This document shows, piece by piece, positions 27,409-42,137 of a stretch of 64,000 nt of DNA. Below the pieces are notes generated by a model, which saw only the letters and a list, made by a program, of their open reading frames with translations, did not search any database and had not been told where the DNA came from. The number at the start of each line of letters is the position of its first letter. Within the stretch, counting starts at the first letter, position 1. Both the position numbers and the translations under genes were made by a program. This stretch comes from Escherichia coli. GTDB taxonomy: Bacteria > Pseudomonadota > Gammaproteobacteria > Enterobacterales > Enterobacteriaceae. The stretch lies in the NCBI RefSeq assembly GCF_013122565.1, contig NZ_CP053258.1; one strand, 5' to 3'.

Positions 27409-28566
27409 TTATTGTCCTGCGAGTTGCTGAAGGGCTGTGATGACACGGTCGGCATCGGCGGTGGTCATATCCGGGAACAGCGGCAAAGAACAGATGCGTT
27501 CGCTATTCCATTCGGTATTCGGTAACGACAGCGTGGGAAAACGCTCGCGATAATATTTTTGTGTGTGAGCGGCGCGGAAATGTAACCCGGTACCAATGCC
27601 TCTTTCTTTTAACGCTTCCATCAACGCATTTCGACTGATACCACAACGTTGTTCATCGACACGAATAATAAACAGATGCCAGGCGTGAACGTGCGGCCAG
27701 GCGGGAAGGCTTAATGGCTGAAAGGGGAGAGCTGCCAGTGCTTGCTGATATTGCAGGGCAATTTCGCGCCGACGGGTGTTGAGGTACTCTAATTTGGCTA
27801 ACTGTGTCATGGCAATCGCGGCGTTAATATCGGTCAGATTGTACTTATAGCCCGGCGTTAAGACTTCAGCCTGCGGTGCACGGCCCCAGGTTTGTCTGTC
27901 ATAGGCATCGACACCCAGACCGTGAAATTTCAACATCCGTAGCTGGCGGGCAAGATTTTCATTATCAGTAACAATCAGGCCACCTTCCGCACAGGTAATA
28001 TTTTTGATGGCGTGAAACGAAAAAATAGCGGTACCTTTTGCTCCAATATGTCGCCCTTTGTAATACGTACCGACGGCATGGGCTGCATCTTCGATAACTG
28101 CGATGCCGTAACGTTCGCCAAGGGCGCGAATGGCGTCAATATCTGCTGGCGCACCGGCATAATGCACCGGAATGATGGCTTTAGTGCGTGGCGTAATGGC
28201 TGACTCGATAGCTTCAGGCGTGACCATCAGCGTATCGCGGTCGACATCCACCATTACCGGCGTTGCACCCAACAAGGAGATCATATTGAGAGTTGAAACC
28301 CAGGTCAGGGAAGGCGTAATCACTTCATCACCCTTGCCAATTTCCAACGCCATTAGCGTGATATGCATTCCGGCGGTGGCTGAACTGACCGCGATGGCAT
28401 GCTGATTTCCCGTCAACTGGCAAAAGGCTTGCTCAAGCGCCTGATTCTTCGGACCGGTTGTGATCCAACCGGATTCGAGAACCTCTTTAACTGCAGCGAG
28501 TTCCTCCACGCCCATTGCTGGTCGCGAAAAAGGCAAAAATTCTGACATTGCTTTTCCTTCCGCCAT
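27409..28566 (-). CDS. arnB: UDP-4-amino-4-deoxy-L-arabinose aminotransferase (PLP-dependent)
   Basis: DegT/ArnB-type aminotransferase; start placed at ATG (MAEGKAM...), 5 codons inside the GTG-initiated track ORF; alternative start MSEFLPF. Confidence 0.9.
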
Positions 28567-28646
28567 TGAATACCTGTCCACTTATATTTGCTATAAAGAG
28601 TGTTGTGTATATTTTGCCATTTGGAGCGAAATTTTAAGGATAGAAT

Positions 28647-28663
28647 ATTAACTTAACCTTAAG
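28647..28663 (-). promoter_or_regulatory. PmrA (BasR) box upstream of arnB
   Basis: Minus strand reads CTTAAG-gttaa-GTTAAT (two YTTAAK half-sites, 5-bp spacer) about 80 bp upstream of the arnB ATG; matches the known PmrA-box architecture. Confidence 0.7.
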
Positions 28664-28855
28664 AAACTAATATTAGACGTAAATATTGAAATTTTTATAT
28701 TTTTTCTTATTTAGGCTTTGCATTTGGCAAAATTTTGAGGCATTTTGCCGACATCGTAGGATTTTTAATATTACACCAACTGCTAATTATCGCCAGAAAT
28801 GTCGCTCAATTTCACGGTAATTGTCTGGTTGCGCTTGTCTATAGGTGGAGTTTAC

Positions 28856-29458
28856 GTGTTAGCTTTTTGCCGCTCATCATTGAAGTCAAAAAAATATTTC
28901 ATCATTTTACTGGCGCTCGCTGCAATTGCCGGACTGGGTACTCATGCCGCCTGGAGTAGCAATGGTTTGCCACGTATCGACAATAAAACATTGGCCAGAC
29001 TGGCACAGCAGCACCCGGTTGTCGTTTTGTTTCGCCATGCTGAACGTTGCGATCGTTCAACTAATCAATGCTTGTCAGATAAAACAGGTATTACGGTCAA
29101 AGGTACCCAGGATGCCCGTGAACTGGGCAACGCTTTTAGTGCTGATATCCCTGATTTCGATCTTTATTCCAGTAATACCGTCCGGACCATTCAGTCGGCG
29201 ACATGGTTTTCAGCGGGTAAAAAGCTGACGGTAGATAAACGACTTCTTCAGTGCGGTAATGAGATTTATAGTGCAATTAAGGACTTACAAAGCAAAGCGC
29301 CTGATAAAAATATCGTTATTTTCACCCATAATCATTGCCTGACATATATTGCTAAAGATAAGCGTGATGCGACATTTAAACCCGATTATCTGGATGGTTT
29401 AGTCATGCATGTGGAAAAAGGCAAAGTTTATCTGGATGGGGAATTCGTTAATCAATAA
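28856..29458 (+). CDS. ais: Ais / PmrG-like periplasmic histidine-phosphatase-family protein
   Basis: 200 aa from GTG (VLAFCRSSL...) with RBS GGTGGAG; signal peptide; divergent from arnB. Confidence 0.8.
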
Positions 29459-42030: not shown

Positions 42031-42137
42031 AATTTCTGAATGTTTTCTTAACATCGCGGCAACTCAAGAAACGGCTGGTTCTCCCACTGAATCAGGCTGT
42101 TAATCATAAATAAGACCACGGGCCACGGAGGCTTTCA

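Follow-up and report, generated by a model that had tools for sequence, protein, structure and literature searches.

A single PmrA/BasR box between the divergent genes arnB and ais of Escherichia coli: a probable shared site, examined by comparison of orthologous regions

How can two divergent genes follow the same regulator when one recognisable binding site lies between them? This question is raised by the spacer between arnB and ais of Escherichia coli, the latter gene being named pmrG in Salmonella. BasR (PmrA) is an established regulator of this locus, and a BasR SELEX of the E. coli arnB-ais region has reportedly been published. In E. coli, pbgP (arnB), pmrC and pmrG (ais) are employed as reporter genes activated by PmrA (PMC3140997), and under iron selection ais, arnB, eptA, pmrR, ugd and basR were found to co-vary (PMC13405929). 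A PmrA motif for ais was found earlier in a motif study that scanned the spacer common to ais and yfbE (PMC1525208). Based on the arrangement and the scans described here, a single site is located between two divergent genes, the co-regulation of which is taken from this literature.

The window, by which we mean the whole 64-kb stretch of DNA that was analysed, is part of an E. coli chromosome; of 5426 complete E. coli genomes, 5418 contain a match to its positions 28400-29000, in every case chromosomal and with an identity of 95-100%. The arnB coding sequence was assigned to the minus strand at 27409..28548 from the list of open reading frames and the annotation of an identical record. The ais (pmrG) coding sequence, for an LPS core heptose(II)-phosphate phosphatase, was assigned to the plus strand at 28856..29458 from the open reading frames, the annotation and a protein search. 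The NCBI PGAP annotation starts arnB at the ATG at 28548, and the K-12 RefSeq start is 18 nt further upstream, at the ATG at 28566. With the PGAP start the spacer measures 307 bp (28549-28855); in K-12 it is annotated at 289 bp, identical to the interval 28567-28855 that an earlier, sequence-only reading of this DNA had used. The G+C content of the spacer core is 24-25%. According to that reading ais starts with GTG, and this was borne out by the annotation, by the coordinates (GTG at 28856-28858, plus strand), by a Shine-Dalgarno sequence GGTGGAG at 28844-28850 and by a conserved gtgGAg..GTG block in the alignment. A GTG start had been suggested for arnB as well. However, both annotated arnB starts are ATG, and the GTG at 28581 is merely the first start codon of the maximal open reading frame; its counterpart was missing from the one other Escherichia spacer that was read for GTG (L006).

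Based on a motif search, scanning with a position weight matrix (PWM) and conservation, we located a PmrA/BasR box, CTTAAG-GTTAA-GTTAAT (CTTAAGGTTAAGTTAAT), on the minus strand at 28647..28663. Its hexamers are 11 bp apart, a third TTAA is found inside the 5-bp spacer, and the CTTAAG half, which is a palindrome, is on the ais-proximal side. The sequence agrees exactly with the definition of the PmrA box by the Salmonella consensus, in which half 1, CTTAAG, is followed after 5 bp by half 2, xTTAAT (PMC3973317). The pattern CTTAAG-N5-GTTAAT, which had been proposed on the minus strand about 80 bp upstream of arnB, was the only match in the 64-kb window and was found 0 times in 100 dinucleotide-preserving shuffles. 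The distance of 80 nt applies to the K-12-style ATG at 28566, and with the PGAP ATG at 28548 it becomes 98 nt. The PWM was built on four sites only, namely the K-12 eptA, pmrR and waaH boxes and the verified Klebsiella pneumoniae pbgP box, with the arnB box excluded. It gave the arnB box 20.4 bits, rank 1 of the approximately 128,000 positions of the whole window, in line with the earlier claim of one clear box, on the arnB side. The second-best PWM match in the window, CTGAATGTTTTCTTAAC at 42036-42052 (plus strand, 16.6 bits), belongs to the control region between the divergent genes glpA and glpT and is situated roughly 50 nt upstream of glpT; since the PWM rests on four sites, this match is probably due to chance.

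Regions that code for Ais homologues in Escherichia, Citrobacter, Salmonella and Intestinirhabdus (n = 23, anchored on the box) were compared; they represent roughly ten independent lineages of one family. The box was found once and in the same orientation in 23 of 23 orthologous regions, with the CTTAAG half always nearest to ais, so that all four genera retain it, as expected of a conserved PmrA box. One region differed in size: in C. amalonaticus S646 (L007) the arnB-ais spacer measures 523 bp instead of the usual approximately 300 bp. The extra approximately 220 bp lie in the arnB leader, between arnB and its promoter, and contain a sequence (…CCCCTGGAGCGTACATGAGTACGTGACTGGGGTGAGCG…) that may be an ERIC/IRU-type repeat.

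A second box, oriented towards ais, was then sought in the spacer. With YTTAAK-N5-YTTAAK at up to 2 mismatches, the search of 28549-28855 returned only the same 17-mer, read on either strand. Across the window the same threshold gave 46 matches against 40.6 +/- 8 expected by chance, which is no excess. With the PWM, the best ais-oriented position in the spacer (28641-28657) reached 5.7 bits and arises when the same TTAA run is read with a shift of 6 bp, and the runner-up at 2.4 bits is the box read backwards; both best plus-strand positions thus overlap the main box. The PWM scan of 21-22 orthologous regions revealed no positionally conserved second site, and the best other matches in them either varied in position by species or were again shifted readings of the same TTAA run. 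A separate PmrA box dedicated to ais was rejected on these scores and for want of a conserved position. The consensus search and the PWM therefore agree with the earlier statement that no comparable second box faces ais, both in the window and in the 21-22 orthologous regions.

The orthologous region of Salmonella enterica, pbgP (pmrH/arnB)-pmrG (ais), has a single box, CTTAAT-GTTAA-TTTAAT, with location and orientation unchanged. PmrA was reportedly footprinted on the Salmonella pbgP-pmrG region by Wosten and Groisman in 1999. As in the window, a TAnnnT follows the box after 10 nt towards pbgP; towards pmrG, the Salmonella region has a TTGCTT-N17-CATTTT at 67 nt. The flanks of the half-sites differ, K being T in Salmonella rather than G, and Salmonella has a true TTAA extra half-site and a TATAAT or GATAAT 20 nt from the box, where the window has ACTAAT and TATTGA. 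As the E. coli orthologue of this Salmonella PmrA site and a standard BasR target, the arnB-ais box is already known. With the K-12 pmrR, waaH and eptA sites, arnB shares the 17-bp direct repeat with TTAA cores 11 bp apart, and eptA, like the Citrobacter and Salmonella arnB sites, has an additional CTTAAG with its core starting 8 bp upstream. Unlike these three K-12 sites, the arnB box has a second half-site that begins with G and a third TTAA in its spacer. It also lies between two regulated divergent genes, a position that is not known for the pmrR, waaH and eptA sites in the literature consulted. Footprinting and NMR have confirmed the K. pneumoniae pbgP box, CTTAAT-ATTAT-CCTAAG, on whose two half-sites the activated dimer sits head to tail (PMC3973317, PMC2565834). 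The Klebsiella pbgP promoter differs from the window in having an additional PhoP box and two start sites, and no Klebsiella ais homologue was found among the protein-search results.

On the arnB side, we predict a -10 element TAAAAT at 28631..28636 on the minus strand, 10 nt after the box and conserved. A TAnnnT at exactly 10 nt from the box on this side was present in 23 of 23 regions, against a background of 0.043 per position, and in K-12 a -10-like hexamer likewise follows the box after exactly 10 nt at pmrR (CATACT), waaH (TAAAAC) and arnB (TAAAAT). Because this layout is common to all 23 regions and to K-12 pmrR and waaH, transcription of arnB is expected to start near 28624, which would put the box at about -39 to -23. 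In this position the box would stand in for the -35 element of arnB, next to a predicted -10, which is the usual arrangement for an activator.

Whether ais also depends on the box can be approached from lineages in which arnB is gone. The arnBCADTEF operon has been lost, fully or partly, several times beside ais. In two Escherichia regions (L002, L003) the arn operon is deleted with approximately 60 nt of the arnB 5' end left. The menE gene directly adjoins the spacer in C. sedlakii (L018), the near-identical L029, L025 and C. rodentium (L026), and pmrD adjoins it in Intestinirhabdus alba (L015). In C. tructae (L028) only an arnT-like gene remains on the left, under an arnB-type promoter. Strains with such losses should not be able to modify lipid A with aminoarabinose. 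All arn-less or arn-reduced regions keep one box, in the same orientation, upstream of ais.

Beside the box, comparison of the regions revealed a degenerate extra half-site at 28666..28671, ATTAGT on the minus strand (ACTAAT on the plus strand). Relative to arnB, its core, TTAG rather than TTAA, begins 8 bp upstream of that of CTTAAG. A true TTAA core was found at this place in 11 of 23 regions, for example as CTTAAG-AA-CTTAAG in Citrobacter, and the Salmonella arnB region is among those that have it. All 11 regions carry arnB or lost it recently, and the TTAA core is missing in all deep arn-less lineages. The K-12 eptA box (L021) is preceded by the same CTTAAG-AA-CTTAAG arrangement. Because the extra half-site recurs at eptA and arnB and is absent from the deep arn-less lineages, its distribution suggests that it serves arnB-type promoters and not ais.

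The box itself behaved differently from this half-site. Together with the ais core promoter that is described below, it was kept in four deep arn-less lineages, in the near-identical L029 and in the two recent Escherichia deletions. In the four deep arn-less lineages measured, its identity to the window was 0.88 versus 0.19-0.40 for most of the surrounding spacer. We favour the explanation that ais needs the box, because the box was kept while its surroundings diverged and the extra half-site was lost. In part, the retention could reflect recent deletions, and the three arn-less Citrobacter lineages may derive from one event. It could also be argued that the box belongs to arnB alone, that ais is not directly controlled through the spacer and that the copies in arn-less regions are decaying remnants. 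The box is indeed arnB-oriented, nearer to arnB and an exact fit to the arnB architecture, and remnants do persist, as in C. rodentium, where a 12-nt remnant of the arnB start (ATGGCTGAAGGA) is found beside the box, fused to the leftward -10. However, the box of the arn-less lineages is far better kept than most of its surroundings, the loss of the extra half-site in them indicates that decay had time to act, and E. coli ais mRNA follows the PmrA regulon (PMC3140997, PMC13405929). We consider it extremely improbable that the box serves arnB alone. The sequence-only reading had left the choice between one box for both promoters and a degenerate ais site. The comparison favours the one box, which is kept upstream of ais after the loss of arnB; the degenerate overlapping reading at 28641-28657 is the less likely alternative.

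If ais needs the box, a promoter should be found on its side, and two candidates were considered. The first, P1, is a -10-like hexamer TATTGA on the plus strand at 28684..28689, 20 nt after the box. In the window it is a poor sigma-70 match that lacks the final T. On the ais side, 14 of 23 regions have a TAnnnT at a spacing of exactly 20 nt to the box. The motif reads TATAAT in Salmonella diarizonae/arizonae and I. alba, and it is absent from this window, C. tructae, the Citrobacter-like L030, C. sedlakii and others. In E. whittamii and four other Escherichia genomes (two labelled E. coli, two Escherichia sp.) the hexamer is TATTAT, and in the window and K-12 it is TATTGA; if P1 is a real promoter, it has been weakened in the lineage of the window and K-12.

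The second candidate, P2, is a core promoter on the plus strand at 28718..28746, composed of TTGCAT (28718-28723), 17 nt and CATTTT (28741-28746), and was found by its conservation. CATTTT was present in 23 of 23 regions, with TTGCnn exactly 17 nt upstream in 20 of 23. The 8-mer GGCATTTT (28739-28746) was invariant in all 23 although its flanks are saturated with change. Identity to the window was 1.00 for GGCATTTT and 0.83-0.86 for the -35 of P2, compared to 0.19-0.44 for most of the surrounding spacer. Such conservation of GGCATTTT exceeds the apparent need of a lone non-consensus -10 hexamer. Four E. coli strains sampled across the identity ranking (96.7-98.8% identity) showed zero polymorphism in the box, in either -10 candidate and in P2, and all differences among them sit between the box and the promoter elements. 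P2 matches the sigma-70 consensus at 6 of 12 positions, and because of this weak match the promoter scan was silent on it; such weakness is the look of an activator-dependent promoter. Transcription from P2 would start near 28753 and give ais a leader of approximately 103 nt.

Between the end of the box and the -10 of P2, 9 regions have 77 nt and 11 have 67 nt; the three others have 56, 64 and 69 nt. Of these distances, 77, 67 and 56 nt are about one helical turn apart. Since the 64 nt of C. tructae and the 69 nt of L030 are out of phase, a strictly helical phasing of box and P2 was rejected, and it can be described as a tendency only. In K-12 grown without inducer, Kim et al., 2012 (PMC3415461, Table S1) recorded no start sites in the spacer, which argues against P2 as a strong constitutive promoter and fits activator-dependent promoters on both sides. 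The same table holds a start site at K-12 position 2363241 (plus strand) that was assigned to arnB, 691 nt upstream. It corresponds to approximately 29257 on the minus strand of the window, where it is preceded by a TATAAA hexamer and marks a transcript that is antisense to ais and begins inside that gene.

Several other readings of this side of the spacer were discarded. The sole plus-strand match of the promoter scanner, TAGACG-N16-TATATT (28674-28701), lies in a stretch that is present in some Escherichia only. An Rfam search of the spacer for a known RNA element gave no match at E <= 1, and an RNA structure as the reason for the conservation of GGCATTTT was set aside, as the sequence 3' of the proposed ais start is unconserved across genera and varies from 27 to 126 nt in length. 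Other candidates at the GGCATTTT block were judged by eye. The window contains a hairpin, GGCAAAAT/ATTTTGCC, that Salmonella and several Citrobacter lack, a 4-codon leader reading frame starting from TTG is unconserved, and a sigma-28-like GCCGACAT is E. coli-specific. Also judged by eye was a -10 further downstream, TAGGAT or TAATGT located 17 nt past TTTAAG, which was seen in Escherichia only. An RNA polymerase SELEX peak listed under ais/arnB in the heat-shock sigma section of PMC5493296 turned out to lie inside the ais coding sequence, approximately 500 bp from the spacer.

The choice between P1 and P2 was guided by PhoP, a direct-repeat binder of the OmpR family. A reversed PhoP box was inactive at 12 and 23 nt from the -10 and active at 27, 37 and 48 nt, and reversed PhoP boxes in nature are found 30-58 nt upstream in the promoters of architecture V, namely ugtL, pagK, pgtE, mgtC, pagC as well as pipD (PMC3335776). 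Divergently overlapping promoters with PhoP are attributed to Yamamoto et al., 2002, as cited in PMC3335776. Since a reversed PhoP box is active at a distance, a box that faces away from ais is likelier to act on the more distant promoter. On this analogy P2 is our best candidate for the ais promoter, held tentatively and at somewhat less than even confidence, and P1 is the more doubtful of the two. The comparison has its differences: architecture V involves another regulator and another motif, the ais distances of 56-77 nt exceed the range tested for PhoP, and architecture V promoters usually have a second PhoP box, whereas no second PmrA box was found in the arnB-ais spacer.

Taken together, the sequence comparison makes it probable that one shared BasR (PmrA) site controls both arnB and ais. 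In the mechanism that we propose, phosphorylated BasR bound to the arnB-oriented direct repeat would replace the -35 element and recruit RNA polymerase directly to TAAAAT. The same bound dimer, reversed as seen from ais, would activate the weak and invariant TTGCAT-N17-CATTTT (28718-28746). For this it would have to act from 56-77 nt upstream of the P2 -10, over an intervening stretch that is very AT-rich and full of T-tracts. We infer both start sites, the choice of the ais promoter and the route of the activator to it from these arrangements. Several observations speak against the shared box acting in this way: its centre would be at about -77 to -98 on P2, beyond any reversed PhoP box in PMC3335776, the spacing is out of phase in C. 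tructae and L030, and P1, with TAnnnT at 20 nt, is positionally conserved in 14 of 23 regions.

The last of these leads to another reading, in which back-to-back promoters share a quasi-symmetric box and BasR directly activates an ais promoter with its -10 at 28684-28689. Binding in the flipped orientation (ATTAAC-N5-CTTAAG) is conceivable, as TTAA is palindromic and CTTAAG perfectly so, and BasR could also use the 6-bp shifted reading TAGAAT-ATTAA-CTTAAC (28641-28657). Flipped binding stays in play because these palindromes make the PmrA box far more symmetric than the PhoP box; read towards ais, the box has 2 mismatches to YTTAAK-N5-YTTAAK versus 1 towards arnB. Only offsets 4 and 23 come near the count of 14 of 23 for TAnnnT at +20, the hexamer is a TATAAT in the Salmonella and I. 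alba regions named above, and a directly oriented PhoP box works at approximately 23 nt from the -10 (PMC3335776). Two arn-less lineages, moreover, have ais-direction PWM scores of 15.7 and 10.7 bits versus at most 6.6 bits elsewhere. However, the ais-direction scores of the window are only 2.4-5.7 bits, and the arnB-direction score stays at 15.7-21.3 bits even without arnB. The P1 hexamer is lacking in C. tructae, L030 and C. sedlakii, and although E. coli ais is regarded as activated by PmrA, the window and K-12 have TATTGA, without the final T. Balanced in this way, direct activation at P1 by a box read in both directions appears unlikely to us, though it deserves some weight.

The shared site acting on P2 also leaves one matter on the arnB side. 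The leftward -10 was kept in arn-less lineages in which nothing but the 3' end of menE or pmrD is recognisable on the left, and its persistence without arnB is a remaining puzzle that is not accounted for by a box kept for ais. It suggests that leftward promoter activity matters in itself, unless the deletions are recent or the Citrobacter losses are one event. This would be explained if BasR drove the leftward promoter only and ais followed indirectly, through negative supercoiling that arises behind the leftward polymerase or through relief of H-NS-type silencing and opening of the AT-rich spacer; in a variant of this idea, a short transcript absent from the annotation would be made from the leftward promoter that was kept. 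Such coupling would agree with the leftward TAnnnT at 10 nt in 23 of 23 regions, including deep arn-less lineages without a recognisable leftward gene (chance 0.043), with the persistence of the arnB-type box orientation without arnB and with the missing ais-oriented box. The long and variable distance from the box to the ais promoter (56-77 nt) and the low G+C content of the spacer core, 24-25%, would fit as well. Against it, the losses of arn may be of recent date, a single event may account for the three arn-less Citrobacter lineages, and most distances between box and promoter differ by whole helical turns, which suggests a stereospecific contact over a diffuse effect. We regard indirect coupling as very unlikely, and a single BasR site that acts directly on both promoters remains our preferred explanation.

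Through arnBCADTEF and ais/pmrG lipopolysaccharide is remodelled, and both are a basis of the resistance to polymyxin/colistin and to iron. The box itself and the way in which the two genes are regulated are textbook knowledge, and the modest additions made here are comparative: the box, the invariant and weak ais core promoter and the leftward -10 outlast the loss of arn. One BasR site for both genes would affect how reporter fusions, promoter mutations in resistance and arn-deletion strains are read.
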